Below the pieces are notes generated by a model that ran no database searches, had not been told where the DNA came from, and saw only the letters and a list, made by a program, of their open reading frames with translations. A DNA stretch of 64,000 bases from Candidatus Methylomirabilota bacterium. Its GTDB lineage: Bacteria > Methylomirabilota > Methylomirabilia > Rokubacteriales > CSP1-6. Position numbers and translations under genes: made by a program. Each line of letters starts with the position of its first letter. Positions within the stretch are counted from its first letter, which is position 1. The DNA lies in the NCBI GenBank assembly GCA_035635755.1, contig DASQAK010000052.1, positions 6,236-70,235 on the forward strand, given 5' to 3'. Shown here piece by piece: positions 36,506 through 53,647 of the stretch.

Positions 36506-36516
36506 GATCGCTTCCG

Positions 36517-37557: not shown

Positions 37558-37663
37558 TGAGCTCTCAAACTCTCAAGGACCTGTACCGGATAGGTACCCC
37601 GCATGCGATACACCGTGGCTCCACGATAGCTGTCGAACGATACCACACACGTGTGGCCCATAC
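37558..37663 (-). promoter_or_regulatory. 106-nt lower-GC intergenic gap with a near-perfect palindrome CCACACACGTGTGG (37633-37646) and a CTCTCAA direct repeat; possible internal promoter/operator
   Basis: Read directly. One of only three >50-nt gaps in the 50-kb minus-strand array. Confidence 0.25.
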
Positions 37664-38584
37664 CTATTGTCCGGAGCCCGTGGCCGCCGGCTTACGAGCG
37701 ACGATGCCGATATTGCCCAGGGGCAAGCTCAGGGGAAGCGTGTCGGCCCCCAGGGTCCGGAGGACACCGTGTCCGAGGCGGCGGAGAATCGGAGGCAGCA
37801 GCGGCGCCTTGTCGAGAAGAAATCCGGTCGAGTAGCGATTGTACGTCGTTCGCACCACCGCGACGTCGAACCCCGCCCGCTCGAAGAGAAGCCTCAGGGT
37901 CCGCTTGGAGAGGAAATAGTGGTGATACACGTTGTAGGGGGGGAAACGCTCTCCCAGGAGCCGCTCCAGGAGCGATTCGACGTTGTGGACGACCGCCAGG
38001 ACCGCCCCGCCTCGCCGAAGGTGACCGCGCACCCGAACCAGGAAATCGTTCACGTCGACCAGGTGATCGACCACATGAATGAGGGTGATCAGATCGAAGT
38101 GCTCCGGGGGATACACGGTAGCCTCGTAGAACGCGCGGGAGATCGAGCTTCCGGGAACAGCCGCCGCCTGCGCAGCCGCTACCGGGTTGGGCTCGATCCC
38201 GAAGACCTCTCGGAAGCCATCTCGCCGGGCCACGTCGAGCAGCATGCCCGTGTCACAACCGATATCGAGCATGCGATCGCGACGGGCCAGGTGCGGGCGG
38301 ATGAGCTCGTAGTAGAGCTCGAACGTCCGTTTGACATTTCCCTCCTCTCCCGAGCGCACGTTGGTGTGGGCAGCCTGGGCGTACAGGTCGCGCACCCCAG
38401 CCTCGTCGAAGATCGGGCTCGAGTACCGAAGGCGGCAGCCGGAGCATTCCCTGATCCGATAATGTACGTGCTCGGGGTCGTGCATCGGCCCGGCCGCCGT
38501 CGGCATCGCATCGGGCGTCAGCGTCTGCCGATAGATGGTGCGCCCTTCGTCCTTGCGGCAGATGGGGCACCCGATGTTCCTCAT
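37664..38584 (-). CDS. class I SAM-dependent methyltransferase with N-terminal Zn-ribbon (CPxC...CxxC)
   Basis: C-terminal 306 aa of ORF 37664..39724 from 'MRNIGCPICRK...CSGCRLRYSSP'. 'MLDIGCDTGML', 'LRRGGAVLAVVHN'. Confidence 0.7.
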   Translation of the reverse strand: MRNIGCPICRKDEGRTIYRQTLTPDAMPTAAGPMHDPEHVHYRIRECSGCRLRYSSPIFDEAGVRDLYAQAAHTNVRSGEEGNVKRTFELYYELIRPHLARRDRMLDIGCDTGMLLDVARRDGFREVFGIEPNPVAAAQAAAVPGSSISRAFYEATVYPPEHFDLITLIHVVDHLVDVNDFLVRVRGHLRRGGAVLAVVHNVESLLERLLGERFPPYNVYHHYFLSKRTLRLLFERAGFDVAVVRTTYNRYSTGFLLDKAPLLPPILRRLGHGVLRTLGADTLPLSLPLGNIGIVARKPAATGSGQ

Positions 38585-38592
38585 GGGGTGGC

Positions 38593-40188
38593 TCACATCG
38601 ACCGCCGGCGGAACACGCCGTATTCCATCCCCAGCGCGCCCTGAACCACGCTGACCTGCTCGAACCGCTCGCTCAGCAGCTTCCGGATGAGTCGGGCCAC
38701 CTCTGGTCGGTACCCGTCCAGGGCATCGAGGGAAGCGGGCGACACGATGGCGTACTGGACGTCCCGACCAAGCCAGCGCTCCACGTCCGCCGCCGACCAG
38801 GCACCGCTCCGGTGCAGAATCGCCTCGTCGGCGCCAGGGGGCGCCACGGTGCCGCCGGGCGACATCAGTTGCTGGACATAGGCCTGGAGCCCGGCAAGGT
38901 AGATCGGCATCGGCTGCGCGAAGAGGAATACCTTCGTTCCCGCAGGCACCAGTGCTCGAAGATCCGAGGCCGCCCGGTCGGTCATCTCGATCGGGTCCTG
39001 TTTGAACGGTGTCGGGATCGGCCGGGGCATGAGCGGGTGGCGGACGGCCACCACGGAGAGCACGAGACCGGCAGCGAGAGAAGCCGCGACGATTCCACGC
39101 GTGAGCCGATCCATATCGGCGCGGGCGAGGCAAGTCGCGCTTACGACCCCCAGCACCACGGCGAAGAGGGGGGCGAACGAGGGAAAGTATGCCGGCACGA
39201 TCTTGAAGTTCATGCGGAGCATGACGAAGTGCCAGGCCAGGATCCAGAGCCAGAGGCCGCCTATCACGCCCAGTCCGCGGCGCCACGGCATCCATGCCGG
39301 TCCTCTTCCGCGAAGCGCCAGCAGGCCACTTGCAACGAGAAGGCCCCCCGCCGTCAGCGTCCAGGACTCGTACCGTCGCGCGAAGATCACGAACGACCAG
39401 ATCTGCTCCTGCCGCCCCGCCTCCCGCACGGGGGAGAATTCGAGAATGGAGCGGTAGCCCAGAGGCTCCACGAAGCCGCGCAGCACGGGCACGTGCGCCA
39501 GGAGCTTCAGATGCGTGGTATCGGCGGCGAGAAACAGCGCGGGAGGAACCACGGCGATGAGCGCGACGGCGAGACGCTCGGCGCGGCCTCGGGCCACGCT
39601 GAAGGCCCACACGAGAAAGAACGGCAGGGACGGGAAAAGATTCGTTCGAGTAAAGAAGAGGAGCGACGCGATGGTCATCCCGATCGCTCCTCGCCACCGC
39701 ATCTCCTCTTTCAGCAACACCCACACGGCCGTCATCAGGACGAGGGCCGTCATGGAATGGTACGTGGCCGTCGCGAAGTAGCCGACCAGGGTGCCTTGCG
39801 TCGCGAGGAGCAGTCCTGCGAGCACCCCCGCCGTGTCGCCGCCAACTCTGCGCGCCACGGCCACCGTGGCCAGCAGCGCGACGAGTCCTATCCCCAGCGA
39901 GACGAGGCGCGCCGCCCAGAGACTCCGCCCGAAGATCTCCTGTGACGCTCCGAGCACGTAGAAGGGCAACGGCATACGCTGCCCCGTCATCTCGTCCTGG
40001 AACAGAGCGATCTGCCCGGTGAGGGCCATCTGGCCGAGAGCGAGAAAGGACGACTCGTCATCCCACGTGATGAGGCTGCGAGAGTAGAAGACGCCGATCG
40101 CCAGATACACGACAACCATCACGGCCACGGCCCCCCGGAACGTCATCGAGGACATCCCGGGCGGTGGCGGAGTCGCGGCCTCGGTCAT
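38593..40188 (-). CDS. GT-C-fold membrane glycosyltransferase (PMT/ArnT-like, GT39/GT83-type)
   Basis: 531 aa, >10 predicted TM helices. N-terminal loop motif 'LFQDEMTGQRMPLPFY' is shared with the paralogue at 56644..58269. Confidence 0.6.
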   Translation of the reverse strand: MTEAATPPPPGMSSMTFRGAVAVMVVVYLAIGVFYSRSLITWDDESSFLALGQMALTGQIALFQDEMTGQRMPLPFYVLGASQEIFGRSLWAARLVSLGIGLVALLATVAVARRVGGDTAGVLAGLLLATQGTLVGYFATATYHSMTALVLMTAVWVLLKEEMRWRGAIGMTIASLLFFTRTNLFPSLPFFLVWAFSVARGRAERLAVALIAVVPPALFLAADTTHLKLLAHVPVLRGFVEPLGYRSILEFSPVREAGRQEQIWSFVIFARRYESWTLTAGGLLVASGLLALRGRGPAWMPWRRGLGVIGGLWLWILAWHFVMLRMNFKIVPAYFPSFAPLFAVVLGVVSATCLARADMDRLTRGIVAASLAAGLVLSVVAVRHPLMPRPIPTPFKQDPIEMTDRAASDLRALVPAGTKVFLFAQPMPIYLAGLQAYVQQLMSPGGTVAPPGADEAILHRSGAWSAADVERWLGRDVQYAIVSPASLDALDGYRPEVARLIRKLLSERFEQVSVVQGALGMEYGVFRRRSM

Positions 40189-41351
40189 TCGGTGAAACGC
40201 TTCTGCACCAGCCGCGCGTCGATGGGAACCGAGCGAAGCACGTCGACGATGCGCGGCGCGGCGTGGCCGTCACCGTAGGGATTGGCGGCCGCGCGGGCCC
40301 GGGCGCGGAAGGCCGGCGCCTGGGCCGCCTCGATGCCCCGCAAGATGTCCTCGCGCGAGGGCTCGACGTCGATGACGTTGGCCCCCCGGAGCCGTCCGCG
40401 CTGGCGCGAGCCCACGTTGACCACGGGCAGCCCGAAGGAAGGCGCCTCGATGAGACCGCTCGAGGAATTGCCGATCATGAGATCGGCGTGGCGCAGCAGC
40501 GAGAGGTAGGGCCGCTCGCCCAGGCTCTTGGCGAGCCGGCAGCGCCGGGAATGGCGCCCCGCGAACTCCTCGATCCGCTCGATGATGAGCCGCCCCGACG
40601 TGTCGGCATTGGGATACGTGATGACGATGAAGCCGTCCGTCTTCTCGATCGCGGCCAGGAGCTCGTCGATGTGGGCGGCGGTGTCCCGGTACTCGAGGGT
40701 GACGGGATGAAAGGTGACGAGGAGCCAGGGCCCCGCCTCGGGCAACCTGAGCTCGCGGGCCAGCGCCGCGCGGGACAGCGGCTCCGTGGTGGCGAGGCGG
40801 TCGAGGCCGGGTGCGCCGACGGAGTGGATGCGCCACGGCTCCTCCCCCATGGCGGCGATGCGCCTCGCATGGGGCTCCGCCGAGGCGAAATGCAGATGCG
40901 CGAGCTTGGTGATCGCATGGCGGATCTGATTGTCCATCGCCCCTTCGGAGAGCTCGCCGCCGTGGATGTGCGCCACGGGGAGGGCAAAGGGAAGCGCGGC
41001 CACCGCCGCCGCGAGCATCTCGAAGCGGTCGCCCAGGACCACGACCACATCCGGGCGTATGCGCGCGAACACCTCTCCGAAGCCCGCCACTCCTCGCCCC
41101 GTGGCGGCCGCCACCGCCTCCGGCGTGTCGTCGCCCCCGAGCATCTCGACGCGGGCGGAGATGGGAAAGCCGTCCGCCTCGATGTCGCGTACCGTCAGGC
41201 CAAACTCGCTTGCCAAATGCATGCCCGCCACCAGGAGAAGCAGCTCGAGGTCGGGCGCGCGCCGCAGCGCCTCGAGCACCGGCCGCAGGTGGCCGTAGTC
41301 CGAGCGGCTGACCGTGACCACGCCGATGCGCCTCGCGGCCCCCTCCGTCAT
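40185..41351 (-). CDS. UDP-N-acetylglucosamine 2-epimerase family (NeuC-like, hydrolysing type)
   Basis: 388 aa; 'VAHIHGGELSEGAMDNQIRHAITKLAHLHF'. ATGA overlaps on both sides. Confidence 0.8.
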   Translation of the reverse strand: MTEGAARRIGVVTVSRSDYGHLRPVLEALRRAPDLELLLLVAGMHLASEFGLTVRDIEADGFPISARVEMLGGDDTPEAVAAATGRGVAGFGEVFARIRPDVVVVLGDRFEMLAAAVAALPFALPVAHIHGGELSEGAMDNQIRHAITKLAHLHFASAEPHARRIAAMGEEPWRIHSVGAPGLDRLATTEPLSRAALARELRLPEAGPWLLVTFHPVTLEYRDTAAHIDELLAAIEKTDGFIVITYPNADTSGRLIIERIEEFAGRHSRRCRLAKSLGERPYLSLLRHADLMIGNSSSGLIEAPSFGLPVVNVGSRQRGRLRGANVIDVEPSREDILRGIEAAQAPAFRARARAAANPYGDGHAAPRIVDVLRSVPIDARLVQKRFTE

Positions 41352-42397
41352 GGCTCCGCCAGCGCCTCCCAGCCGATCACTTCGTCGGCGGCGATATCGC
41401 GAGCGAGCGGGCGCCCGATCGCCTTGTCCAGATCGGCGGGGGAGATGCCCGTGCCGGGCCGCTTGATCAGGACGTCTTCCGCCCCGAGCCGCGCGCCCGC
41501 CCTGAGTGCCCGCGCCGCCACCAGGCTCTTCCGCGCCACCCGGCGGGTGTCGAGCTCCGACGGCATGGGGCGCTTGGTCCCGTCACCGAGCGCGGACTCC
41601 ACGGCCCGGATGGCCCGGACCATGGCCGCGAACTCGACGGGATCGAGGGAGGCGCGATGATCGGGACCGGGCAGGGTCTTGTCGAGCGTCAGGTGCTTCT
41701 CGATGATGGCGGCGCCGCGCGCGGCTGCCGCCACCGCGATCTCGATGCCCAGCGTGTGATCGGAGAAGCCCACGGGACAGCCGCATCGCGCGGCGAGGGC
41801 ATCCATGGCGCGCAGGTTGACCTCGGCGGCGGGAGCGGGATACGCGGAGAGACAGTGGAGCACGGCCAGGGGCGGATTGCCGGCGGCCCGGATGGCCGCC
41901 ACCGCTTGCTCGACTTCGTCCAGGCTCGACATGCCGGTGGACAGGATGATGGGACGGCCCTTGGATGCGAGGTGGCGCAGCAGCGGGAGATTGGTGATCT
42001 CCCCCGACGGCACCTTGAAGAGGGCGACCCCGAGCCTGTCCAGTACATCTGCGCTCTCCTCGTCGAAGGGCGCCGAGAAGAACGTGAGCCCGCGCTTCGC
42101 GGCCCGGTCCTTGAGCTCCGCCAGCACCGCCGTGGCGAGCTCGAGTCGCGCGAGCATGTCGCGCTGGCTCTCGTCCGCCCCCGTGGTCTCGACCTGGTAT
42201 CCCGCCTTGGGCGCGCCGCGGGTCAGCAAGGCGTCGACGCGAAACGTCTGGAACTTGACGGCGTCCGCCCCGCTCTCGGCCGCGGCGTCCACCAGGCGGC
42301 GGGCGAGCGCCGGATCGCCATTGTGATTCACGCCGGCCTCGGCCACGATGTAGATACGCCCGCCCGCGCCGAAGCAGGGCAGGCCCGGCGCGGTCAC
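41348..42397 (-). CDS. N-acylneuraminate-9-phosphate / nonulosonic acid synthase family (NeuB/LegI/PseI-like) with C-terminal SAF domain
   Basis: 'IYIVAEAGVNHNGDPALARRLVDAAAESGADAVKFQTF'; C-terminal SAF/AFP-like domain. GTGA overlap with upstream stop. Confidence 0.85.
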   Translation of the reverse strand: MTAPGLPCFGAGGRIYIVAEAGVNHNGDPALARRLVDAAAESGADAVKFQTFRVDALLTRGAPKAGYQVETTGADESQRDMLARLELATAVLAELKDRAAKRGLTFFSAPFDEESADVLDRLGVALFKVPSGEITNLPLLRHLASKGRPIILSTGMSSLDEVEQAVAAIRAAGNPPLAVLHCLSAYPAPAAEVNLRAMDALAARCGCPVGFSDHTLGIEIAVAAAARGAAIIEKHLTLDKTLPGPDHRASLDPVEFAAMVRAIRAVESALGDGTKRPMPSELDTRRVARKSLVAARALRAGARLGAEDVLIKRPGTGISPADLDKAIGRPLARDIAADEVIGWEALAEP

Positions 42398-44340
42398 GAT
42401 CCGCTCCGCGCCGCGCTGATCTCCTCGGCCAATGCCAGCACCCGCTCCCCCAGGCGGCCGTCGACGGGATGAACGTAGCGCGCGGAGAAGGCGCGCCCCC
42501 GCTCGATCATGACCGCCCGCTCCGCGGGATTCCAGAGCACGACGCGGAGCGTGTCCGCGAGGGCCGCGGCCTTGCCCAGGTCCACCCGCCGGACCGCGCC
42601 CGCGCTGACATAGGGCGGCATGTACTCGCCCTCGAAGTCCTTGCCGGCCGTCTGCACGGCCACCACCGGGCAGCCCAGGGCCATGGCCTCGAGGCCGGCC
42701 ATGGACGTGACCATGACGGCGGCGTCCGCGGCCCCGAAGAGGCGATGGATGTCGTAGTCCTTGGTCAGGAGGGCCTCCGGCCATCCCCACTCGCCCACCT
42801 GCTCGCGCAGACGCTCGAGATCCTCGTTCGGATGGACCTTGACGATGAAGTCCACGTCGCCCAGCTGACGCGCAGCCGCCACCATGGTCCGGTAGAAGCC
42901 TTCTCTCTCCTGCGCCGAGAAGAGCAGCGAGACGTACTTGGACACGAAGACCACGAGGGGGCGGCCGGGGGCGAGGCTGAAGTCGTGGCGGACCTCCTCG
43001 CGCAGCCGCCCCGTGGGCACCAATCGCGCGGCGTTGGAGCGGGGGTCGCCGACCACCGACACCCGTCCCGCCTCGATGCCGAGCTCCCTGACCAGGCTCT
43101 CCCGGAGATGCTCGCCGATGACGACGAGGCGGTCGCCGATATCGAAGCGGCTGGTCAGATCGCGAGGAAGGACGAGAGTTCCCGAGAAGAGCAACGAGGG
43201 AATGCCATTCGCGCGGGCGACGAAGGCCATGGCCCGCTCGCCGAGGCGCCGGTCACTCGTGACGACGAGGGCGTCCGGACGTGTGGCCCTGACGGCACGG
43301 TACGCGGCTTCCTGGCACAGGAGGGCAGCCAGGAGGCTCGCCTCGGAGCCGGCCAGGAATGGCCGGAGGACAGGCCAGAGCGAGACGCCTCGCCACGACA
43401 CTCGCTCCGCGAGCTCCGGATCGCGCTCGGCACGTCGGAGCGCGCGGCGGAACAGCGGCCGGAACCGTCGGACGAGCCGCGCCGCCGTGGCCTGGGGAAG
43501 ATAGTCCATGAGATAAGCCGTAGGCACACCCGCTGCGCTGAGGTCGCTGACACGGGCCGAGAGCTCCGGGTCCTCGTTCGACTGCGCGACGAGACGGGGC
43601 GACGCGCCGGCCGAGCGCACGGCCTCGATCAGAGGGTCCACGAGCAGATGATGGCGGCTCCGGCACGTCACGAAGAGGATGCGCCGGCCCTCGGCGCGCT
43701 GAGAGACGGGGGCATGCCGCTCCTGACGGAGCAGCTGCTGGAGATTGATCCGATCCTCTCGCGGAAAGAGCGCCGCGTAGGCCCGCGCCGCGAGCTGCGG
43801 CAGGGGCGAGCGCGAGACGCCGCGCACCCCCAGGCCGCGGGCCCGCGCCACGAGGCGGGCCACCTGCTCCGTCATCGAGGCGCCGCTCAGCAGCCGCAGC
43901 TGATCGGGCTTCACCTCGTCGAGCACCCGGTTGATGATACCGAGCCGCTCCACCACCTCGAGCCGGACCCGAAGTCTCTTGCCCACCGTGAGCAGATCAG
44001 GCAGCCAGACGCCGCGGTACGAGAGATCGAGCTCGTCCGACGTCGCCTGCCACCAGCCGGTGACGAGGCGTTGCGTCAGCGATTCGAGCTCTCGCGAGTC
44101 GACGGCGTAGGCTTCCTCGTCGTAGTAGTGCACGGCGACCGTGGGGGGAATGGCCGAGGCGTCCACGAGCTGGCGGGCGCCCAGCACGGTCACCTCATGG
44201 TCCTCGATCAGGCGCTTGACCGCGCGGGTCACGGCCCGCCGGTACCAGTGGGCATAGGCGAGAAAGGATCGACGCACCATGGGCCGGCGAAACTCGCCGA
44301 TGCTCCGGGTCGCCTCGGTGACGAGGAGGAGCCGGATCAC
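42394..44340 (-). CDS. large two-domain GT-B-like transferase with HP motif (TagF/KpsC/sialyltransferase-like); candidate ulosonic-acid or glycerophosphate transferase
   Basis: C-terminal ~649 aa of ORF 42394..45036. 'FIVKVHPNED' HP motif typical of CDP-/CMP-dependent GT-B transferases. N-terminal 230 aa of the ORF rejected as artefact. Confidence 0.45.
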   Translation of the reverse strand: MIRLLLVTEATRSIGEFRRPMVRRSFLAYAHWYRRAVTRAVKRLIEDHEVTVLGARQLVDASAIPPTVAVHYYDEEAYAVDSRELESLTQRLVTGWWQATSDELDLSYRGVWLPDLLTVGKRLRVRLEVVERLGIINRVLDEVKPDQLRLLSGASMTEQVARLVARARGLGVRGVSRSPLPQLAARAYAALFPREDRINLQQLLRQERHAPVSQRAEGRRILFVTCRSRHHLLVDPLIEAVRSAGASPRLVAQSNEDPELSARVSDLSAAGVPTAYLMDYLPQATAARLVRRFRPLFRRALRRAERDPELAERVSWRGVSLWPVLRPFLAGSEASLLAALLCQEAAYRAVRATRPDALVVTSDRRLGERAMAFVARANGIPSLLFSGTLVLPRDLTSRFDIGDRLVVIGEHLRESLVRELGIEAGRVSVVGDPRSNAARLVPTGRLREEVRHDFSLAPGRPLVVFVSKYVSLLFSAQEREGFYRTMVAAARQLGDVDFIVKVHPNEDLERLREQVGEWGWPEALLTKDYDIHRLFGAADAAVMVTSMAGLEAMALGCPVVAVQTAGKDFEGEYMPPYVSAGAVRRVDLGKAAALADTLRVVLWNPAERAVMIERGRAFSARYVHPVDGRLGERVLALAEEISAARSGS

Positions 44341-44960
44341 GGACGGCCTCCGCGGGGACGCGCGGGAACGCCCATCACCGTTTCGCCCGCCGGCACATCC
44401 GAGATCACCACGGCGCCGGCGGCGACTTCGGCTTCCTTCCCCACCGTCAGGTTCGGCAGCACGGTTGCCCGGGCGCCGAGGAAGCCGCCCGCCTCGATGG
44501 TGACGCCGCCGCAGAGGACGACGCCGGGCGAGAGGTAGGCGTGCGCTCCGATGCGGCAGTCGTGCTCGACGATGACTCCGCTGTAGATGACGGCATTGTC
44601 CCCGACCTCGACCGACGCGCCGAGCACGCCGCCCGCGAACACCACGACGCCTTCGCCGAGGTGGCAGGTGCGTGACAGCACGGCGCGCGGGTGCACCAGG
44701 GTGGCGACCACGATACCCGAGGCCTTGAGAAGCTGGAAGAGCGCGGCGCGACGGTCGAGGGCGGCGTTGCCGATGCCGACCACGGCGGCATCCATGGCGC
44801 GGGCCGCCGCCAGCGCGGTCAGGTTCTCGTCCCGGCCCAGAACCGACGGGCCGGGCGAGCGATCGGTGAAGCCGGCGACGGTCCAGCCGCACTCGACCGC
44901 GAGATCGGCTACGGCCCGGCCGTGGCCTCCAGCGCCCAGGATCAAGAGTCGCTTGGCCAC
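44337..44960 (-). CDS. sugar N-acetyltransferase, NeuD/PglD/LegH family (hexapeptide repeat)
   Basis: 207 aa; 'LLILGAGGHGRAV' N-terminal Rossmann-like and C-terminal left-handed beta-helix repeats. Confidence 0.8.
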   Translation of the reverse strand: MAKRLLILGAGGHGRAVADLAVECGWTVAGFTDRSPGPSVLGRDENLTALAAARAMDAAVVGIGNAALDRRAALFQLLKASGIVVATLVHPRAVLSRTCHLGEGVVVFAGGVLGASVEVGDNAVIYSGVIVEHDCRIGAHAYLSPGVVLCGGVTIEAGGFLGARATVLPNLTVGKEAEVAAGAVVISDVPAGETVMGVPARPRGGRP

Positions 44961-44966
44961 GGCTCG

Positions 44967-45692
44967 CTAGCTCCGGCCCGGCGCGAGGGCCGCGCGACCT
45001 TCTCGCAAGAGCAGCTCGGCGAGGAGGAAATCCCACTCCGTGTCGATGTTCACGGAGGCCTCGAAATCCATCACGATGCCGCGGTTGTCCTCACCGAGGA
45101 TGTGCCCGTGGCGCATCAGGGTCTCGTAGCGCGTCACGTACACCGCGCCGGAGGGCTGATAGACGGGCGGCGCGTCCTGGCGACGCACATAGGTGTGCCC
45201 CTCGGGGAAGAGCGCCACCGTGCGGTCCCCGTCGAGCGTCTTCATGAAGTATGGATGATACGAGGCCTCCGAGAGCGTCTGGGCCGAGTCGGCGCCCGTC
45301 TCGGCGACCTTCCGGATCGTCGCGTCGATCTCGGCGCCCCGGCGGAACGGCGAGGTCGGCTGAAGGGTCACGATCACGTCGGGCTTCACGCCCGCCGACG
45401 ACTCGAGCCAGCGCACCGCGTGCTGGAGGACGCCGAGCATCCCCGCCTCGTCGGTGGCGAGCCCCGCCGGCCGCAGGAACGGGACGGGGAGACCCTGACG
45501 CTCGGCCTCGGCGGCGATCTCCTCGCTATCCGTGGAGACGATGAAGCGCGTGAGCAGCGCGGACTCGCGGGCGGAGGCGATGGCCTGCCCCAGGAGCGAG
45601 AGCGCGCCGAGCTTGCGCAGGTTCTTGCCCGGCAGGCCCTTGGAGCCGCCGCGCGCGGGAATGACCCCGAAGGCGTACGGCGTCGCCGTCAT
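44967..45692 (-). CDS. acylneuraminate cytidylyltransferase family (CMP-nonulosonic acid synthetase, NeuA-like)
   Basis: 241 aa; 'FGVIPARGGSKGLPGKNL' signature. Confidence 0.85.
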   Translation of the reverse strand: MTATPYAFGVIPARGGSKGLPGKNLRKLGALSLLGQAIASARESALLTRFIVSTDSEEIAAEAERQGLPVPFLRPAGLATDEAGMLGVLQHAVRWLESSAGVKPDVIVTLQPTSPFRRGAEIDATIRKVAETGADSAQTLSEASYHPYFMKTLDGDRTVALFPEGHTYVRRQDAPPVYQPSGAVYVTRYETLMRHGHILGEDNRGIVMDFEASVNIDTEWDFLLAELLLREGRAALAPGRS

Positions 45693-45695
45693 CCG

Positions 45696-46679
45696 CTAGA
45701 CCCGGACCCAGCGCCGCTCCGCCGAGGCCTTCACGGCGGCGTCGATCACGCGCATGGTCTTGAGCCCGTCCCAGCCGTCGCAGGCGGGGGAGGCCTCGCC
45801 GCGGATGCAGGCCAGGAAGTGGCGGGCCTCCTCGACGTACATGTCGTTGAGCTGGCAGGCGAACGGATAGATCTCCCACCGGTTCGCCCTGGGATCGAAG
45901 ACCCGGATCTCGTTCTCGAATCGCCGCCACTGGATCACGCCCTCTTCGCCCATCAGCTCGAAGTGGCTGTGCACGTTCCAGGCAAAGAGGTTCATATGGA
46001 TGTTGCCCACCGTGCCCGAGGCGAAGCGTACGGTCAGGTCGGCGATGTCGTCGGTGGTGATCTCGAGGCTCGAGACGCGGTCGACCACCGCGCTGACCTC
46101 GGTGATCTCGCCGCAGAGCCACCGCATAAAGTCGATGGCATGGCTCTCGTCGAGCACGCAGCCACCGCCCTGCTTGGCGTCGGCCATGTAGAACGTGCGG
46201 TAGTCCTTGCCGGGATAGCGCGTGGTCAGGTGGTAGGCGTACTCGGTCCGCGCCGCGCGCACGGCCCCGATGCGCCCTTCCTTGAGCAGCTTCTCGGCGA
46301 GCAGCATGGGCGGCCAGTAGCGCCAGTTGTAGGCGGTGAGTACCTTGAGGCCCTTGGCGTCGCAGAGCTTGAGGAGGTCTTCCACGCCGTCCACGGACTG
46401 GGCGAAGGGCTTTTCGACCATGAGGTGCGCGCCGCGCTCGGCGGCCTGGCGGCCCAGGGCGAGGTGCGAGTCGGGCGGAGTGCAGATCACGGCGCCGTCG
46501 GCGCCCGCGAGGGCGGCTTCCGCCGTGGGCGCGATGGCCGCCCAGGGAAAATCCTTGGCCGCGGCCTCGCGCTGCGCGGGGGCGGCATCGTAGGCGGCGA
46601 GGCTCTCGACGCCGACCGTCCGGAAATTTCCGAGATGCCGGCGGCCGATCGAGCCCAGTCCGAGGACGGCGAGCTTCAT
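45696..46679 (-). CDS. Gfo/Idh/MocA-family oxidoreductase
   Basis: From 'MKLAVLGLGSIGRRH'; 'EKPFA'. ATGA overlap with upstream stop. Confidence 0.8.
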   Translation of the reverse strand: MKLAVLGLGSIGRRHLGNFRTVGVESLAAYDAAPAQREAAAKDFPWAAIAPTAEAALAGADGAVICTPPDSHLALGRQAAERGAHLMVEKPFAQSVDGVEDLLKLCDAKGLKVLTAYNWRYWPPMLLAEKLLKEGRIGAVRAARTEYAYHLTTRYPGKDYRTFYMADAKQGGGCVLDESHAIDFMRWLCGEITEVSAVVDRVSSLEITTDDIADLTVRFASGTVGNIHMNLFAWNVHSHFELMGEEGVIQWRRFENEIRVFDPRANRWEIYPFACQLNDMYVEEARHFLACIRGEASPACDGWDGLKTMRVIDAAVKASAERRWVRV

Positions 46680-48220
46680 CTCTTGGTCTCCAGGACGAGC
46701 CGCGGGGCGGGGGGGGGCGGCGGGTCCGCGGCGTGCAGGCGGTTCCATTCCTTCTCGTAGCGCTCGATGCGGGCGATGTCCCGCCGGACCATCAGCTCAC
46801 GCAGCCCGTAGAGCTCGACGGCGTTGAACTTCTTGGAGATGACGGCGGTGACCCGCGTGGCATCGCCCAGGTCCAGCAGAAATGCTTCGAGGTCTCCGTC
46901 GTACTGGTCGAGGATGCGCTGCTTGTTCGCGTAGTACCACTCCGTTCCCGGATACGGGGTGGCGAAGAAGGGCTTGACGTTGAGGCCGAGGCGATTCCAG
47001 GCGCGGATGTTGTCCTTGAGGCTGTCGAAGTCCTCGTCGGGGAAGCCCATCATCTGGTTGGGGATGGGCCGGATACCCGCCTCGAGCGTCCACTTGAGCG
47101 AGCGCTCGTTGGTCTCGGGAGTGGCGCCCTTGCCGATGGTTTTCATCACGCGCGCGGAGAAGCTCTCGTAGCCGTAGACGAGATGCGAGCACCCCGCCTG
47201 CTTGATGGCTCTCAACACCTCGGGCGAGCAGAGGGTGGCGTGGCTGGTGCCGCCCCAGTGGACGCCACTGCACTTCTCGGGGTCGTGGGGGACGCCGTCA
47301 CGCACACACTGGGGCTGCAGGCCCTCCTCGATCCAGAGCTTTGCGATATCCGTCAGCCACTTCTTGCCCGAGAACTGGTGCATGGTCATGAGGTTCTCGT
47401 CGAGGAAGCCGATGAAGTCCACCCCGAAGCGCTCGCGAGCGTACTTGACGAGGTTGACGACGTAGCGCGGGCTGTGGAAGCGGATCTTGCGGTCGTAGGT
47501 GAAGGCGACGTCGTTCTCGCCCTCCGCGTTCTCCTGGTGCTGCATGTCGCCCGCGATGCCCAGGTGGAAGCAGAAGCGGCAGATGAGCGAGCAGCCGTAG
47601 CTGGCGTTGATGTCGAGGCGCCGCTGGGCGAGCATGCCCTCCTCGGAGTAGAGCGCCATGCTGTTCTTGAAGTAGACCTCGAGCGGGAAGAGCTCCCAGG
47701 CCGGATAGGGCAGGCTGTCGAGATCCATGAGGAGGGGCTGCTCCGGGTTCAGCCTGGTCTTGCCCGAGGCGTCGCGCCAGATCAGCCCGGGAACGGCCGC
47801 CCAGTCGCGATTCCCCCCGTCCACCCGGCGAAGCAGCTCGGGAAAGGACACGAAGGCCTCGCCCACCACGCCCACGTCTATCCGAGGCAGGAAGCGCATG
47901 ATGTCGTGAGGCATGCTCGTGAGGAAGCCGCCCCCCGCCACCACCAGCGCCTGCGGGCAAAGCTCCCTGGCCATCTCGACGATCTGCTTGATCGAGCGGT
48001 ACGCCGTGGTGATGCCGCCGAGCGCGACCACGTCCCAGTGGTCCGCCTGCAGCACCTGGGCGATGACGGCATCCGAGGGGCGCCAGGCATTGTGGTCGTA
48101 CACCTGCACCTTGTGTCCCTGGCCCACCACGATGGCGGCGAGGAGGGCCATGCCGTAGGGCACATGACGCGGATCGTCCTCCTCGCGCATCAGCGGATTG
48201 ACGAACAGCACTTTAGCCAT
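46676..48220 (-). CDS. B12-binding domain radical SAM protein (class B radical SAM; putative methyltransferase)
   Basis: From 'MAKVLFVNP' (AAGGA RBS). N-terminal cobalamin-binding domain. 'YGCSLICRFCFH' CxxxCxxC radical SAM cluster motif. Confidence 0.8.
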   Translation of the reverse strand: MAKVLFVNPLMREEDDPRHVPYGMALLAAIVVGQGHKVQVYDHNAWRPSDAVIAQVLQADHWDVVALGGITTAYRSIKQIVEMARELCPQALVVAGGGFLTSMPHDIMRFLPRIDVGVVGEAFVSFPELLRRVDGGNRDWAAVPGLIWRDASGKTRLNPEQPLLMDLDSLPYPAWELFPLEVYFKNSMALYSEEGMLAQRRLDINASYGCSLICRFCFHLGIAGDMQHQENAEGENDVAFTYDRKIRFHSPRYVVNLVKYARERFGVDFIGFLDENLMTMHQFSGKKWLTDIAKLWIEEGLQPQCVRDGVPHDPEKCSGVHWGGTSHATLCSPEVLRAIKQAGCSHLVYGYESFSARVMKTIGKGATPETNERSLKWTLEAGIRPIPNQMMGFPDEDFDSLKDNIRAWNRLGLNVKPFFATPYPGTEWYYANKQRILDQYDGDLEAFLLDLGDATRVTAVISKKFNAVELYGLRELMVRRDIARIERYEKEWNRLHAADPPPPPAPRLVLETKR

Positions 48221-49226
48221 GATGGTCCTTCGCGGCGGTCTCGAGGAATGCGTCCAGAGTGGACGTGATGACGCCATCGCCGAAGAGCAGGCCGCCCTCG
48301 GTGCAGTTGAAGGTCTGGCAATCGGCATCGCGGGCCATCTCGAGAAAGACCTCGCGAAACCAATGATAGGTCGGGTCGCTGAACCACACTTCGCGCGTCA
48401 CTGGATTCTCGGTGTGGATGAAGGCCTCGCGGTGCCGGGCCTTCAGGAGGTCGACGAGTTCCCGGAAGTATTGCGTCTTCTCGTACGGCGTGTCCGGAGC
48501 ATATCCCAAATCGATGCCCACGAGTCCGATGCGCCGCTTCCCCAGCACGGCATGCGTGAGCACCCATGCCGAGGTGCCGACGTTGCCGCCGCCATTGAGA
48601 CAGGGCAGGCCGTTCATCTCCCAGAGACGACGCGAATGGCTACCGGGCTTGTCATAGTCGTCGTACATCGGGTTCCACCAGTAGAGTTCCATGCGCGTCT
48701 GCTGGCAACGCCGCACCACCGCTGGCGCCGCGGAGGTCGCCGCGGCCACCTTGATCTTCGGCCCGTACGTATCGACGAGGTCGACCAGCGTGCTGTTGGC
48801 GCCAAGCTCATCCTCGCCATGGACGGAATCCATCTCCTGGCGGCGGAAGTAATCGTCAGCGGGGACCTCTGTCAGCCTCGGGTCGCCGAACCAGCGGACG
48901 ATACGGTCCGGATGCGGGTCCACGCTCACCACAACATGAGGCACGACGCCCGCCCGCAAGCAAGCTCCGAGCGCCCCGTCAGCGGCAACGATGGTGCCGG
49001 GGAAGTTTGAGTCGCGCAGCCGCTCGATGCTTTGGCGTCGCCGAAGGCTTGGCCCAGCGCCCACGACGACGGCGGTATCCCCCGTGCCGAGCTGCGCGTC
49101 ACGAAGCTCGAGAACAGAGCGTCCGATGTATGGCCGATTGTCCTCGGCGTTCTTGAGGCCTTCGCTCGCCACATGCTCGAACGTGGCCGCCTCAAGCTCG
49201 CGGGCGATCTTTCTTCCCAGCTCCAT
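48213..49226 (-). CDS. DUF115 / MptE-like (motility-accessory-factor Maf-like) protein; putative nonulosonic-acid transferase
   Basis: 337 aa; 'TAVVVGAGPSLRR...TIVAADGA...VVVSVDPHP' matches the DUF115 Rossmann-like core. Confidence 0.55.
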   Translation of the reverse strand: MELGRKIARELEAATFEHVASEGLKNAEDNRPYIGRSVLELRDAQLGTGDTAVVVGAGPSLRRRQSIERLRDSNFPGTIVAADGALGACLRAGVVPHVVVSVDPHPDRIVRWFGDPRLTEVPADDYFRRQEMDSVHGEDELGANSTLVDLVDTYGPKIKVAAATSAAPAVVRRCQQTRMELYWWNPMYDDYDKPGSHSRRLWEMNGLPCLNGGGNVGTSAWVLTHAVLGKRRIGLVGIDLGYAPDTPYEKTQYFRELVDLLKARHREAFIHTENPVTREVWFSDPTYHWFREVFLEMARDADCQTFNCTEGGLLFGDGVITSTLDAFLETAAKDHHG

Positions 49227-49563
49227 CCTGACGCCCTTTCGCTGTTCTATCTTCCGTATCCGCTCGGCTCGCTGTCCTGCTGGTCGCCTCGCTTGCGGCT
49301 GCGGCTCCTCCGGCGGGACGCGCTTTCGCTGGTCCGTCTTCCGTATCCGCTCGGCTCGCTGTCCTGCTGGTCGCCTCGCCTGCGGCTGCGGCTCCTCCGG
49401 CGGGCTGCGCCTCGCCCTGCCACATCAAACTCTTCTTGCTCACGAAGCAGATGCTGCCTCCGAGACGCGAGAGGGCCTTCTTCTCGAATTCATCGGTCGA
49501 GTTCGCGGCATCCCCCTTGTCCTCGATCTTCGCGTCAACCTTGTAGTTGCCCTTGAGGAACTC
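49192..49563 (-). CDS. small protein (123 aa) with N-terminal charged domain and 2x 29-aa Ala/Gly/Ser/Thr-rich tandem repeats
   Basis: Perfect RBS AAGGAG 7 nt before ATG. Very high GC3 in the N-terminal half. 'MPEFLKGNYKVDAKIEDKGDAANSTDEFEKK...' then repeats 'PAGGAAAAGEATSRTASRADTED'. 3' end overlaps DUF115 start by 35 nt. Missing from the obvious track reading because it lies inside a longer artefactual ORF. Confidence 0.5.
   Translation of the reverse strand, partial: EFLKGNYKVDAKIEDKGDAANSTDEFEKKALSRLGGSICFVSKKSLMWQGEAQPAGGAAAAGEATSRTASRADTEDGPAKARPAGGAAAASEATSRTASRADTEDRTAKGRQDGAGKKDRPRA
49247..49420. repeat. tandem direct repeat, 2 x 87 nt (~95% identical) inside the small ORF
   Basis: 'ccgtatccgctcggctcgctgtcctgctggtcgcctcgc' recurs with 87-nt period. 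In frame (29 aa). Confidence 0.85.
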
Positions 49564-49571
49564 CGGCATGC

Positions 49572-50240
49572 TCAGCTCCTTTTCGCGATCCGCCCGCCCG
49601 TGCTGTCGCCGTTGCCCGCGGGCGAGGCCAGGCGCCTCAGCGTGAGGAACTTCTCGGGCGGCAGACCCAGGCGAACCAGGCCCGCCACGTGCCGTTCGGG
49701 CCTTTCGAAGGTGGCGACGACGATGCCGTCGACATCGGCCATGGGCAGCTCGGAGACCGGCCGCACAGGCAGGCCCAGGAAATGGCCGCCTCCCTCCCCC
49801 GCGAAGATCCCCACCGGCTCCAGCCCGAATTCCTTGAGGGTGAGGTAGGCCAGCTCGGCCGCCTCCCCGGTTCCGCAGAGCGCGATGCGCTTCATCCCGT
49901 TCCGCCCCAGCTGCCCCATGGCCTCCCGGAGATTGTCGCGGGTCCGCCGGTAGAGCTGCAGTGAATGTCCCATGTACTCGTAGGTCAGGCGGGCCTTCTC
50001 CGTAGCGCCCTTGGCCGTGAGCATGTAGCGGAGGCGCTTGCGGGCGGAGGGCTTGCTGGAGAACTCCCGTATCTTGATGAAGCCCTTCCCGGCCAGCCGC
50101 TTCAGATACAGGTTGGTCAGCCCGAGGGCCACGCCCATTCGCGCGGCGAGGGCGCGCTGGGTCAGGGGCGCCCCCTCCTCGATGGCGGTCAGGATCTCGA
50201 GCTCGCGCTCGATGTGACGCTCGATGGCCATGGCGTTCAA
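49572..50240 (-). CDS. winged-helix transcriptional regulator with C-terminal Rossmann-like (Rex-C-like) domain
   Basis: 222 aa; 'LTQRALAARMGVALGLTNLYLKRL' wHTH; C-terminal 'KRIALCGTGEAAELA...GIVVATFERPE'. Confidence 0.55.
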   Translation of the reverse strand: MNAMAIERHIERELEILTAIEEGAPLTQRALAARMGVALGLTNLYLKRLAGKGFIKIREFSSKPSARKRLRYMLTAKGATEKARLTYEYMGHSLQLYRRTRDNLREAMGQLGRNGMKRIALCGTGEAAELAYLTLKEFGLEPVGIFAGEGGGHFLGLPVRPVSELPMADVDGIVVATFERPERHVAGLVRLGLPPEKFLTLRRLASPAGNGDSTGGRIAKRS

Positions 50241-50251
50241 TATATGAACAC
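50232..50251. promoter_or_regulatory. palindromic operator-like motif GGCGTTCAATATATGAACAC overlapping the regulator start codon
   Basis: Inverted repeat GTTCA-N5-TGAAC. Near-identical copy at 51776-51795 at the flippase start. Confidence 0.5.
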
Positions 50252-50275
50252 AGGCAGCGCGCCCGAGTCAAATTG

Positions 50276-51784
50276 CTAGGAGCTCGCTCTCAGGAAGGCC
50301 ACGAACCTCCGCGGGTCCACGAGCTCCCTGGCGTAGCGGAGATTGTCCGTCCCGGTGTGAGTCAGCCAGAGAAACCCCGTGTAGACGCCGAGGGCAAGCA
50401 CGAATCCCCCGGCCAGGGCTGCCGGCTCGGGCGCGCCGGCGGCGGCGAGGCCTTCCCGGGTCGCCTCGTTGACGGCCACGAGCACGGCGAAGCCCGTCAG
50501 GTACGCCACGGTCACCCGCTGGAAGCCGATGCCGGCCAGCTCGCGCGTCCATCGGATGAACACCCAGCAGGGGAAGATCACCATGAGCAGACGCACGGCC
50601 GCCGCCCCCGTGCCACCGAGGGTCGGAACCAGTACCACCATGGCGACAAGATAGACGGCCAGGCGCAGGAGAACGACGCGCACGAACCGTCCGTGCTGAT
50701 CCATGGCGTAGAGGATGAACTGATACGGATTGAAAGCCGTCTGGGCCAGGGCCGCCAGCACCAGGACCATGAGCGGCGCGACTGCGAGAAGGAAGCGCCG
50801 GCCATAGAGCAGGGTGAGGATGGGCTCACGCAGCGCCCAGAGGCAGAAGGCGGCCGGCACCGCGATGAAGAGTAGCCGGTCCATGGCCGCGGCGAAGACC
50901 CGCCGGCTCTCGGCCGCGGCCTCGAGCCCCGGTGTGGCGAAGAGCCGAGAGAGCCGCGACAGGAGAAGCTGGAAGGGATACTGGTTGAGCCGGCCGAGCA
51001 CTTCCCAGAGTGCCCGCGCGACCTGGTAGTACCCGGCGGCGGTCAAGCCCGCCCAGCGCGCGACGAGAACACGATCGAGAGAGTCCTGGAGCATGCCGAT
51101 GGGACTCGTGATGAAGAGCGGGCGCGCGTAGCTCCAGTAGGCCTGAAGCGTCGCGCGATCGGGACGACGCAGCGCGATGCCTCTGCGGAAGACGAGGATG
51201 TACCCGCCCACGAGGATCTCCGTGGCGCCCTCGACCACCAGGGCCGCCGCCACCCAGCGGATGTCGGGTGCCCAGATCAGCACGGTCATCGTCACCGCGA
51301 AGCGGAGCCCCTTGCCGGCCACCTCCGTGATCGCGTGGGCGCTCGCCCACTCCCGTCCCACGAAGGCGACGCTGAGGGTCGCCGCGAGATTCATCAGGAG
51401 CTGGGCGACGAGGACGAAGAGAACGACCTCGAGGGGCACGCTCGTCGGGATCACCAGGGATCCCCAGCGGGCCGCTGCGAGCACGAGGAGGAGGGCCGCG
51501 ACCTGGATCACCAGCTGGAGCGCGGCCATGGTCCCCACGCAGCGGCCGAGGTCGCCGCCTTCCGCCACCCGCTTCTGGTGCGCCTGATTCAAGCCGGGGA
51601 GCAGGAACGCGGTCAGCATCCCCACCAGGCCCATGCTGAAACCCAGGATGCCGAGGGCGTCGGGTCCGAGCCAGCGGGCGATGAGGATCGTGGTGACGAA
51701 GCCGAAGGCGCTGGCGAGACCGGTGCCGAAGAAGAGGACGACAGACTTCCTGCCGAGATTCCCCTCGTGGCTCACGGCGTTCAA
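50276..51784 (-). CDS. polysaccharide biosynthesis protein / oligosaccharide flippase (Wzx-like, MOP superfamily)
   Basis: 502 aa, ~12-14 TM helices. 'RWLGPDALGILGF' typical of PST-family flippases. Confidence 0.75.
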   Translation of the reverse strand: MNAVSHEGNLGRKSVVLFFGTGLASAFGFVTTILIARWLGPDALGILGFSMGLVGMLTAFLLPGLNQAHQKRVAEGGDLGRCVGTMAALQLVIQVAALLLVLAAARWGSLVIPTSVPLEVVLFVLVAQLLMNLAATLSVAFVGREWASAHAITEVAGKGLRFAVTMTVLIWAPDIRWVAAALVVEGATEILVGGYILVFRRGIALRRPDRATLQAYWSYARPLFITSPIGMLQDSLDRVLVARWAGLTAAGYYQVARALWEVLGRLNQYPFQLLLSRLSRLFATPGLEAAAESRRVFAAAMDRLLFIAVPAAFCLWALREPILTLLYGRRFLLAVAPLMVLVLAALAQTAFNPYQFILYAMDQHGRFVRVVLLRLAVYLVAMVVLVPTLGGTGAAAVRLLMVIFPCWVFIRWTRELAGIGFQRVTVAYLTGFAVLVAVNEATREGLAAAGAPEPAALAGGFVLALGVYTGFLWLTHTGTDNLRYARELVDPRRFVAFLRASS

Positions 51785-51795
51785 TAGGTGAACAC
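51776..51795. promoter_or_regulatory. palindromic operator-like motif GGCGTTCAATAGGTGAACAC overlapping the flippase start codon
   Basis: Second copy of the GTTCA-N5-TGAAC palindrome; first 12 nt of both genes identical (TTGAACGCC.TG). Confidence 0.5.
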
Positions 51796-51853
51796 ACCCG
51801 TCGCCGGCCGGTCAAGGTCATTCGGCGCCGGTACTGGGTCAAGTTGCGAGCCA

Positions 51854-51895
51854 GATCAACTCAGCCCTCGCCTCGGGCTGCGCCCTCAGCTCGAA
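51854..51895 (-). repeat. conserved intergenic element, copy A (reverse orientation)
   Basis: Reverse complement 'TTCGAGCTGAGGGCGCAGCCCGAGGCGAGGGCTGAGTTGATC' matches the family consensus. Confidence 0.6.
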
Positions 51896-51975
51896 CCGCC
51901 ACGCCCGAGGGAGCCAGCTTTGCCCAGCGTACGTGGGTGTACGTTGAGCGTTGCTAGCGACCGAGAACGTGGCAT

Positions 51976-52018
51976 TTCGAGCTGAGCGGCCCCGCCGCGA
52001 GGCGAGAGCTGAGTAGAA
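51976..52018 (+). repeat. conserved intergenic element, copy B
   Basis: 'TTCGAGCTGAGCGGCCCCGCCGCGAGGCGAGAGCTGAGTAGAA'. Conserved arms flank a GCGGC-CCC-GCCGC hairpin. Confidence 0.6.
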
Positions 52019-52090
52019 CTGGCGAAGCAAATTGGCCCAGTACCCGGGCTCCTTGGGCCCCACCCGTCCTCGTGATAGGCTTCATGGCCG

Positions 52091-53561: not shown

Positions 53562-53588
53562 TTTTCGAGCTGAGACGTGGCCACGCAC

Positions 53589-53633: not shown

Positions 53634-53647
53634 CGCAGGCGTGGCAA

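Follow-up and report, generated by a model that had tools for sequence, protein, structure and literature searches.

A predicted legionaminic acid-type locus of Rokubacteriales contains a widely conserved cassette of a small protein, a DUF115 protein and a B12-radical-SAM enzyme

The stretch of DNA analyzed here (hereafter the window) comprises 64,000 nucleotides of contig DASQAK010000052.1 from a Candidatus Methylomirabilota bacterium of the order Rokubacteriales. It harbors a predicted pathway for a nonulosonic acid together with three genes encoding a small protein, a DUF115 protein and an enzyme with a B12-binding and a radical S-adenosylmethionine (SAM) domain (B12-radical-SAM enzyme). 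As the G+C content of the window is ~70%, many of the open reading frames (ORFs) in mechanical ORF lists are spurious, and true genes were picked by frame analysis of the third-position G+C content (GC3). Ten tightly packed minus-strand genes were thereby identified between positions 40185 and 50240 (Table 1). This agrees with a first-pass annotation of the window, which had described consecutive, translationally coupled genes: all enzyme classes that it had named are present, and adjacent genes share 4-35 nt or leave gaps of 1-6 nt, which is compatible with translational coupling. The gene order given there had to be corrected, as the order from 5' to 3' is regulator, small protein, DUF115 protein, B12-radical-SAM enzyme, Gfo/Idh/MocA oxidoreductase, cytidylyltransferase (CMP-synthetase), acetyltransferase, 648-aa protein, NeuB-like synthase and NeuC-like 2-epimerase. 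Judged from their sequences, the pathway is of the legionaminic acid (Leg) type, leading to a 5,7-diamino nonulosonate that is activated with cytidine monophosphate (CMP), and the small protein, the DUF115 protein and the B12-radical-SAM enzyme form a widely conserved cassette, which the first-pass annotation had overlooked.

It was described previously that Leg can be told from pseudaminic acid (Pse) by the hydrolysing 2-epimerase, a step that is absent from the Pse pathway, and by the nucleotidyltransferase PtmE (PMC5378307). A LegC-type aminotransferase, a hydrolysing 2-epimerase and, by its architecture, a CBS-domain nucleotidyltransferase of the PtmE type, the marker of the GDP-linked route, were all found in the window; the nucleotidyltransferase and the DegT aminotransferase lie further downstream, at a distance of 15-20 kb, as had been noted before. 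The 2-epimerase passes the NeuC_NnaA model TIGR03568 (451.7, cut-off 235.9), and its best relative in the PDB is the hydrolysing GDP/UDP-N,N'-diacetylbacillosamine 2-epimerase LegG (5zlr, 280 bits), with human GNE at 196 bits. The synthase passes the NeuB_NnaB equivalog (444.5, cut-off 399.65) and reaches only ~20 bits on DAHP-synthase models, so that it is of the NeuB rather than the KdsA/DAHP type, as had been predicted. It stays below the PseI cut-off (283 vs. 340.25), and in a best-match ranking of its PDB relatives, which is not a LegI-specific model, Bacillus subtilis SpsE came first (194 bits), with NmNeuB at 174 and PseI at 172 bits. SpsE is required for legionaminic acid synthesis in B. 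subtilis (PMC7439481). The DegT aminotransferase fails the PseC model (249.8 vs. 423.5) while passing the LegC-family model TIGR04181 (Table 1), the acetyltransferase passes the NeuD/PglB-family model TIGR03570 (194.4 vs. 160.8) and is LegH-like, and the cytidylyltransferase stays below the PseF cut-off (136.5 vs. 205.7), its best PDB relatives being synthetases of CMP-N-acetylneuraminic acid (CMP-Neu5Ac; 106 bits). The Gfo/Idh/MocA oxidoreductase is PtmF-like in position and size; the Leg cluster of Plesiomonas encodes a 326-aa PtmF oxidoreductase beside LegF, together with LegH, LegI, LegG and a 352-aa PtmE nucleotidyltransferase (PMC4481668). The LegC-family model passed, LegG as the nearest solved 2-epimerase and the synteny in related loci given below support the earlier proposal of a 5,7-diamino nonulosonate. 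The accompanying statement that the exact sugar is not deducible from sequence held in part: the type can be narrowed to Leg, with Pse excluded, whereas stereochemistry is not readable from sequence and the product may be one of the stereoisomers 4eLeg, 8eLeg or Aci.

That the module makes ordinary Neu5Ac instead of a 5,7-diamino sugar appears highly improbable. The models passed by the synthase and the 2-epimerase do carry the names N-acetylneuraminate synthase (NeuB_NnaB) and NeuC_NnaA, and the closest solved relatives of the cytidylyltransferase act on CMP-Neu5Ac, but the aminotransferase lies above the cut-off of the LegC family, the 2-epimerase is nearer to solved LegG than to human GNE, and the synthase is nearest to SpsE of the B. 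subtilis Leg pathway. In addition, related loci show synteny of the PglD/NeuD acetyltransferase, the PtmE-like nucleotidyltransferase and a candidate short-chain dehydrogenase/reductase (SDR) with NeuB and NeuC.

Enzyme classes and protein sizes match those of the CMP-Leg pathways of Campylobacter jejuni, Plesiomonas shigelloides and Tannerella forsythia 92A2/UB4 (LegB, LegC, LegH, LegG, LegI and LegF with PtmE, PtmF and PtmA) for the 2-epimerase, the NeuB-type synthase with its SAF domain, the PglD/NeuD acetyltransferase, the CMP-synthetase, LegC, the CBS-nucleotidyltransferase and the Gfo/Idh/MocA oxidoreductase. Unlike these pathways, the window is without a clear LegB equivalog and keeps an NDP-sugar dehydrogenase inside the block. 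It also differs from them by the split of ~15 kb, by its location in a Wzx/Wzy polysaccharide locus rather than a flagellin or S-layer glycosylation island, and by the presence of the cassette. In related Rokubacteria loci, the NeuC gene is directly followed by the genes for the CBS-nucleotidyltransferase, the NDP-sugar dehydrogenase, the SDR and the DegT aminotransferase. Since the genes are contiguous there, the two blocks of the window represent one pathway that is split by an insertion of ~15 kb. The SDR gene next to LegC overlaps it by 4 nt and is syntenic with LegC in related loci. Conserved in the Rokubacteria loci is also the position of the NDP-sugar dehydrogenase between the PtmE-like and the SDR/LegC genes; to our knowledge, the canonical Leg pathway needs no such enzyme.

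Table 1. Predicted genes of the nonulosonate module, its cassette and associated features in the window.
Feature	Size (aa)	Position	Strand	Evidence
Winged helix-turn-helix (HTH) regulator	222	49572-50240	-	HTH_24, E=1.6e-7
Small protein	125	49192-49569	-	without Pfam or NCBIfam match
MptE-like/DUF115 protein	337	48213-49226	-	66 bits, cut-off 34.6
B12-binding + Radical_SAM enzyme	514	46676-48220	-	CSLICRFC motif
Gfo/Idh/MocA oxidoreductase	327	45696-46679	-	three Pfam GFO_IDH_MocA domains
Cytidylyltransferase	241	44967-45692	-	CTP_transf_3, 65.8 bits
Acetyltransferase	207	44337-44960	-	PglD_N + hexapeptide repeats
648-aa protein	648	42394-44340	-	weak GT-B signals; invariant His503-Pro504
Synthase	349	41348-42397	-	NeuB (313 bits) + SAF
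2-Epimerase	388	40185-41351	-	Epimerase_2
Wzx-type flippase (context, outside the sugar pathway)		50276-51784	-	Pfam Polysacc_synt 60.5 bits + Polysacc_synt_3
CBS-domain sugar-1-phosphate nucleotidyltransferase (PtmE-like)	349	24075-25124	-	CBS + NTP_transferase
NDP-sugar dehydrogenase		22779-24071	-	TIGR03026 283.5, cut-off 189.8
SDR epimerase/dehydratase, candidate 4,6-dehydratase		21800-22786	-	Pfam Epimerase 156 bits
LegC-family DegT aminotransferase		20637-21803	-	TIGR04181 461.7, cut-off 420

The distribution of the cassette was investigated with a profile of the B12-radical-SAM enzyme, which was scanned against one genome per GTDB species. This yielded 111 relatives, from which the best 80 loci were kept, and their neighboring genes were found by searching all window proteins against the six-frame ORFs of each locus. 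The 80 loci, whose B12-radical-SAM homologues are 54-98% identical, span more than ten phyla and are labeled as Rokubacteria, Acidobacteria, Nitrospirota, Chloroflexota, Planctomycetota, Alpha- and Gammaproteobacteria, Myxococcota, Omnitrophota, Elusimicrobia, the candidate phylum Yanofskybacteria and others. In almost every locus the genes for the small protein, the DUF115 protein and the B12-radical-SAM enzyme follow each other in this order on the same strand. Under a strict distance filter the DUF115 gene was adjacent to the B12-radical-SAM gene in 65 of the 75 loci that could be tested, while the full trio was detected in 56, which is a lower bound, as the filter misses adjacency in inspected loci where one or two genes are inserted between the two. 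The inserted genes encode a class I methyltransferase together with a polysaccharide deacetylase of the NodB type in four Rokubacteria-like loci (L025, L026, L028, L031) and probably in four more (L027, L029, L032, L062), while in an Elusimicrobia locus (L078) the gap is filled by an opposite-strand ORF of ~420 aa that resembles a flavin adenine dinucleotide (FAD)-dependent oxidoreductase. Named relatives of the B12-radical-SAM and DUF115 proteins belong mostly to Rokubacteria/Methylomirabilota. A tblastn search with the B12-radical-SAM enzyme against 72,556 plasmids returned paralogues only (25-27% identical), and no description of the cassette was found in the literature on legionaminic or nonulosonic acid with radical SAM or DUF115.

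In the loci with at least 8 kb of sequence on both sides, the trio is accompanied by NeuB (36/40), NeuC (33/40) and the CMP-synthetase (36/40), and either NeuB or the CMP-synthetase is present in 39/40. These constant neighbors across phyla speak against a cassette that acts on another part of the glycan, such as heptose-derived or uronic sugars or the lipid carrier, and merely lies beside the nonulosonate genes. The window does hold HldE-like, SIS, HAD and E1 alpha/beta genes and two NDP-sugar dehydrogenases, and some distant loci carry HldE and E1 genes near the trio; however, heptose and E1 genes were found in few loci only, and we regard such a target as very unlikely. Conservation was compared in distant phyla by the ratio of bit score to self-match score, which was 0.62 for the B12-radical-SAM enzyme, 0.45 for the DUF115 protein, 0.40 for NeuB, 0.38 for NeuC, 0.26 for the CMP-synthetase and 0.24 for the acetyltransferase. 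The ratios of the two cassette enzymes exceed those of the flanking enzymes, and the cassette is therefore more constrained than the core pathway.

Two loci from a marine metagenome with 49% G+C (L007/L008) show the same arrangement, with Wzm/Wzt (Wzt_C domain) in place of Wzx, and their Leg genes include a formyltransferase and a PIG-L deacetylase. This set resembles the one by which Ca. Kuenenia was proposed to make formylated nonulosonates with a free amine (bioRxiv 10.64898/2026.04.20.719630). Two further loci, labeled Nitrosotalea sp. (L030, DATIWG010000051) and Limnocylindria (L021), have cassette genes ~81-82% identical to those of Rokubacteria and share one gene order; their labels may reflect mis-binning rather than an archaeal or Chloroflexi origin.

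The B12-radical-SAM enzyme passes the Pfam models PF02310 (B12-binding; 53.3 vs. 32.1) and PF04055 (Radical_SAM; 58.4 vs. 29.5). In an alignment of ten sequences the motif C210-x3-C214-x2-C217 is invariant and the mean column identity is 74%. The enzyme has more than 1400 relatives, which are 66-98% identical among the 120 matches listed. All 15 NCBIfam subfamily matches lie far below their cut-offs (best ApyD, 88.6 vs. 750), none of the named subfamilies (HpnR, KedN5, PhpK, BchE, HpnJ and others) was matched above its cut-off, and solved relatives are remote, the best being TokK with 28.6 bits. By these comparisons it belongs to a distinct class B family outside the named subfamilies. The N-terminal B12-binding domain and the CxxxCxxC core are shared with class B methyltransferases of sugars or cytidylylated substrates (GenK, Fom3 and the solved TokK, TsrM and CysS), but the similarity to any solved enzyme does not exceed 29 bits. 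A further parallel is the usual proximity to a cytidylyltransferase gene, which is no more than ~1.5 kb away from the trio in 47 of the 80 loci. Most characterized class B radical SAM enzymes are methyltransferases, and Fom3 of fosfomycin biosynthesis methylates a cytidylylated substrate. As the B12-radical-SAM gene is often found near the cytidylyltransferase gene, a CMP-sugar is a likely substrate of this enzyme as well, in analogy to Fom3.

The DUF115 protein has a catalytic domain with a Maf-like fold. It compared best with Maf (motility accessory factor) of Magnetospirillum magneticum, a flagellin nonulosonic acid glycosyltransferase (PDB 5mu5; score 22.0, 239 residues aligned), followed by the archaeal pyrophosphokinase MptE (14.6), SteA (11.5) and the sialyltransferases ST8SiaIII, ST6Gal1 and CstII (7.3-7.7). 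The first-pass annotation had staked its proposal on finding CMP-sugar-utilizing relatives for the DUF115 or the His-Pro-motif protein, and the best match with Maf answers this in its favor. With 337 aa the DUF115 protein has about half the length of Maf (~630 aa) and thus represents a bare catalytic core without the flanking Maf domains of 5mu5 or of Shewanella Maf-2/GlfM. Two further features differ from Maf systems: the protein is always paired with a B12-radical-SAM gene, and its small partner is encoded upstream and has no detected similarity to GlfM. It stays below the PseD flagellin-modification model (29.3, cut-off 670), and no flagellar family was found among the 60 window proteins scanned. 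For Maf-2 enzymes, dependence on a small factor from an adjacent gene, GlfM, was described (bioRxiv 10.1101/2023.12.03.569772).

When aligned across 75 loci, the small protein displays a conserved core of ~60 aa with the pattern M..FLKGN, a variable linker, and FE..AL..LGGSI[AC]FV..K...W.G, followed by a variable tail that is acidic or Gly-rich. Searching a library of 1.84 billion proteins yielded 73 cluster representatives, nearly all of them stand-alone proteins of 54-96 aa. The length of 125 aa in the window is due to a tandem duplication of 87 bp (49230-49404, 2.0 copies, 94% matches; Tandem Repeats Finder), by which the tail gains a repeat of 29 aa shortly before the start codon of DUF115, so that the earlier label of a repeat protein was justified. 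The duplication is absent from a contig of 'Candidatus Rokuibacteriota bacterium AR4' (QHSC01000196, L010), whose DNA is 92-94% identical over 40185-53979, and it is for this reason considered a recent strain-level event. A role as peptidyl carrier was considered and rejected: LGGS resembles LGG[DH]S, but with a different spacing, and the ~15 conserved residues after the Ser are too few for the fold.

The small protein might instead be the substrate of the cassette, with the DUF115 protein O-glycosylating the invariant Ser of LGGS and the B12-radical-SAM enzyme subsequently modifying the tethered sugar or the peptide, in the manner of a scaffold or a ribosomally synthesized and post-translationally modified peptide (RiPP). 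Maf enzymes glycosylate Ser/Thr of proteins, the segment LGGSI[AC]FV is invariant, and the higher conservation of the DUF115 protein relative to NeuB and NeuC fits a conserved acceptor. The weak best NCBIfam matches of the B12-radical-SAM enzyme are RiPP enzymes (ApyD and TIGR03975, the latter with 74 bits), but these scores are far below the cut-offs. Moreover, with its conserved N-terminal 60 aa and variable tail the small protein shows the opposite of the usual leader/core layout, the loci are of the polysaccharide type and have Wzx or Wzm/Wzt transporters, and no homologue of a RiPP-type protease or exporter was seen in the listed loci, where only homologues of window genes were tracked. 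We therefore consider this possibility quite unlikely.

Taken together, these results point to a Leg-type CMP-sugar pathway fused to a cassette that tailors the nonulosonate, a joint reading which we regard as fairly probable. The core route would comprise the PtmE-like nucleotidyltransferase, the candidate SDR dehydratase, LegC, the LegH-like acetyltransferase, the LegG-type 2-epimerase, the LegI-type synthase, the LegF-type cytidylyltransferase and the PtmF-like oxidoreductase. By analogy to Fom3, the B12-radical-SAM enzyme would modify the nonulosonate, and the modification would most likely be a C-methylation of the CMP-activated sugar that depends on methylcobalamin. The Maf-core DUF115 protein would bind the CMP-sugar and either present the sugar to the B12-radical-SAM enzyme or transfer it to a conserved acceptor, and the small protein could act as adaptor or partner of the Maf core, for which Maf-2/GlfM is a precedent. 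A more specific proposal, that the trio is a tailoring machine placing a carbon-bound methyl group on CMP-Leg-type sugars and thereby generates branched or chain-extended 'C10' ulosonic acids, is tentative and best treated as one possibility.

The chemistry of the B12-radical-SAM enzyme could also be other than methylation. Epimerization, dehydration, rearrangement or ring contraction of the sugar would give a stereoisomer or a deoxy variant, with the DUF115 protein serving as the nonulosonate transferase. The non-methylases OxsB, the AprD4 family and BchE are indeed among the remote matches, and nonulosonate loci need a transferase, the DUF115 gene being the only transferase-like gene that recurs in all loci. 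On the other hand, the DUF115 protein is conserved beyond what is expected for a transferase whose glycan acceptor changes from phylum to phylum, and this speaks against such a role. In view of this, and of the prevalence of methyltransferases in class B, non-methylation chemistry is judged unlikely, and methylation of the CMP-activated nonulosonate is the preferred assignment.

The transfer of the sugar onto the repeat unit before Wzx export has a second, lineage-specific candidate in the 648-aa protein. Its family has 181 members, all of them Rokubacteria-like, and its predicted structure (predicted local distance difference test score 89.3) contains a GT-B fold over ~330 residues and an extra N-terminal region, with the invariant His503-Pro504 at the start of the C-terminal Rossmann domain. 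Fold and His-Pro motif are alike in CMP-sugar GT-B transferases with this motif (PmST1, NmB-polyST, the nonulosonate transferases of T. forsythia, KpsC and WbbB), and the protein matches the BFO_1060-family and Capsule_synth models weakly. No [DE][DE]G sequence occurs anywhere in the 648-aa protein; in bacterial sialyltransferases a D/E-D/E-G motif accompanies HP (PMC6388019). The designation as an HP-motif GT-B transferase was thus borne out for fold and motif, and the role as a candidate CMP-sugar transferase is inferred from context. The protein may also have a second, epimerase- or hydrolase-like activity.

Several points weigh against a Leg-type pathway with a nonulosonate-methylating cassette. 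The SDR candidates of the window score 161.8 (32702-33694), 91.7 (21800-22786) and 78.5 (33748-34746) on the LegB model TIGR04180, and none of the three is at the cut-off of 475; the module, which had been called complete, contains all named classes but falls short at the LegB step. The NeuB and NeuC models alone do not separate Neu from Leg. B12-radical-SAM enzymes catalyze reactions other than methylation too, and even the closest relatives with a structure or a name are too distant for a transfer of function. In structure, the 648-aa protein comes closest to 2-epimerases and not to sialyltransferases. No informative fusion of the small protein to the DUF115 or the B12-radical-SAM protein was found among the 73 cluster representatives, and no four-helix bundle homology to GlfM was detected, as far as tested. 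Finally, all 80 loci derive from metagenome-assembled genomes and are known from genes alone.

The proposed C-methylation touches recent observations on nonulosonate chemistry. Ulosonic acids of the Pse/Leg type with a higher carbon number (putatively C10) were reported from M. gryphiswaldense by mass spectrometry (PMC8157484), and CMP-activated forms of such higher-carbon ulosonic acids were detected as well (bioRxiv 10.64898/2026.04.20.719630). The latter study reported CMP-nonulosonates shifted by +14.01 Da in Ca. Kuenenia, which were read as O-methylation with no gene assigned, and tailoring of Leg-type sugars at the level of the CMP-sugar. The cassette could underlie the C10 ulosonic acids and the +14 Da CMP-nonulosonate species. 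M. gryphiswaldense was not among the best 80 of the 111 genome matches in the profile scan, and no search was aimed at its genome. If the proposal is true, the cassette is the missing genetic basis of higher-carbon ulosonic acids and of the +14 Da species, and such sugars are widespread in uncultured phyla of soil, groundwater and marine habitats. Whereas the nonulosonate locus itself is of a known kind, the trio, which recurs across phyla without a studied member, is the new part and probably tailors the sugar in a new way. Nonulosonic acids shape the recognition of bacterial surfaces by phages, hosts and other cells and are hard to synthesize chemically; a cobalamin-dependent radical enzyme with a stand-alone Maf core would add a new type of tailoring step to them. 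For enzymology, the cassette offers a well-conserved and widespread class B radical SAM family with CMP-Leg as candidate substrate. Rokubacteria, an abundant uncultured soil phylum, would moreover devote more than 50 kb to a surface glycan that contains a nonulosonate and is heavily methylated.

The module is not a separate unit but part of a surface-glycan locus of more than 50 kb, which is of the Wzx/Wzy type as it contains Wzx, a Wzy_C protein, a Bac_transf initiating transferase and many glycosyltransferases of families 4 (GT4) and 2 (GT2) and methyltransferases. GC3 frame analysis revealed ~50 consecutive co-directional minus-strand genes from position 51784 down to 148. The run starts with the Wzx gene, which ends 35 nt upstream of the regulator and has homologues at the same position in several Rokubacteria loci. 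After NeuC follow a PMT_2 GT-C enzyme, a methyltransferase, the alpha and beta subunits of a thiamine diphosphate-dependent E1 enzyme, a GT2 and two SDRs, and then an HldE-like kinase/nucleotidyltransferase, SIS and HAD proteins, a transaldolase and two NDP-sugar dehydrogenases. These precede the CBS-nucleotidyltransferase, NDP-sugar dehydrogenase, SDR and DegT aminotransferase genes listed in Table 1, and the GT4, GT2, methyltransferase, Bac_transf and Wzy_C genes lie at the end of the run.

The first-pass annotation had placed the module behind its own regulator. A winged-HTH gene is present, but it does not head the run, since a co-directional Wzx gene lies upstream. Scanning positions 38000-52500 for promoters and terminators gave 1 promoter-like and 8 terminator-like sites, compared with 0.7 and 4.5 from shuffled sequences, and hence nothing above chance. 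With Wzx upstream on the same strand and the scan at chance level, dedicated regulation of the module by the winged-HTH protein can only be called plausible. The regulator has a MarR-like winged HTH and a C-terminal domain of ~110 aa. It stays below the cut-off of the MarR_EPS model TIGR04176 (66.2 vs. 88 bits), the match being limited to the N-terminal winged HTH (residues 12-106), and a PDB search with it gave no significant match. Homologues of the regulator were found ahead of the cassette in Rokubacteria and in the marine loci L007/L008, and weakly scoring ones in several loci of Nitrospira; the one in L007 carries PF22674 (C2185-like_N).

The ~15-kb block at 25200-40188, which separates NeuC from the CBS-nucleotidyltransferase, adjacent to it in related Rokubacteria loci, encodes the PMT_2 GT-C, the methyltransferase, E1 alpha/beta, the GT2, the two SDRs and the HldE-like protein, which has a reversed domain order, as well as a Gfo oxidoreductase, an NDP-sugar dehydrogenase, an SDR, the SIS and HAD proteins, the transaldolase and two unknowns. 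The gene content suggests a pathway for a modified heptose, possibly one with a two-carbon branch. Sets of HldE, SIS, SDR and E1 genes that resemble this block were seen near the cassette in four loci (L020, L044, L079, L082). Four well-supported coding genes of the window (255, 237, 179 and 166 aa) are without a Pfam match and lie at 52091-53561 on the plus strand and at 25200-26236 on the minus strand; the pair at 25200-26236 has homologues beside the heptose block in another locus (L016).

At least 12 class I SAM-methyltransferase genes were found in the window (8190-20640, 37664-38596, 53925-54851, 58274-60159), one of them fused to a GT2 (10754-12247), which suggests that the glycan is heavily methylated. 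Furthermore, the window encodes three membrane glycosyltransferases of the PMT_2-type GT-C class (38593-40188, 56644-58269 and 60178-62352), of which the last (724 aa) ends in an LmeA-like phospholipid-binding domain. The PMT_2 genes, in combination with small genes for GT2 enzymes (34743-35471, 54848-55594), suggest that sugars are added in the periplasm from polyprenyl-phosphate carriers. A metagenome contig in the European Nucleotide Archive is 99.95% identical to the window.

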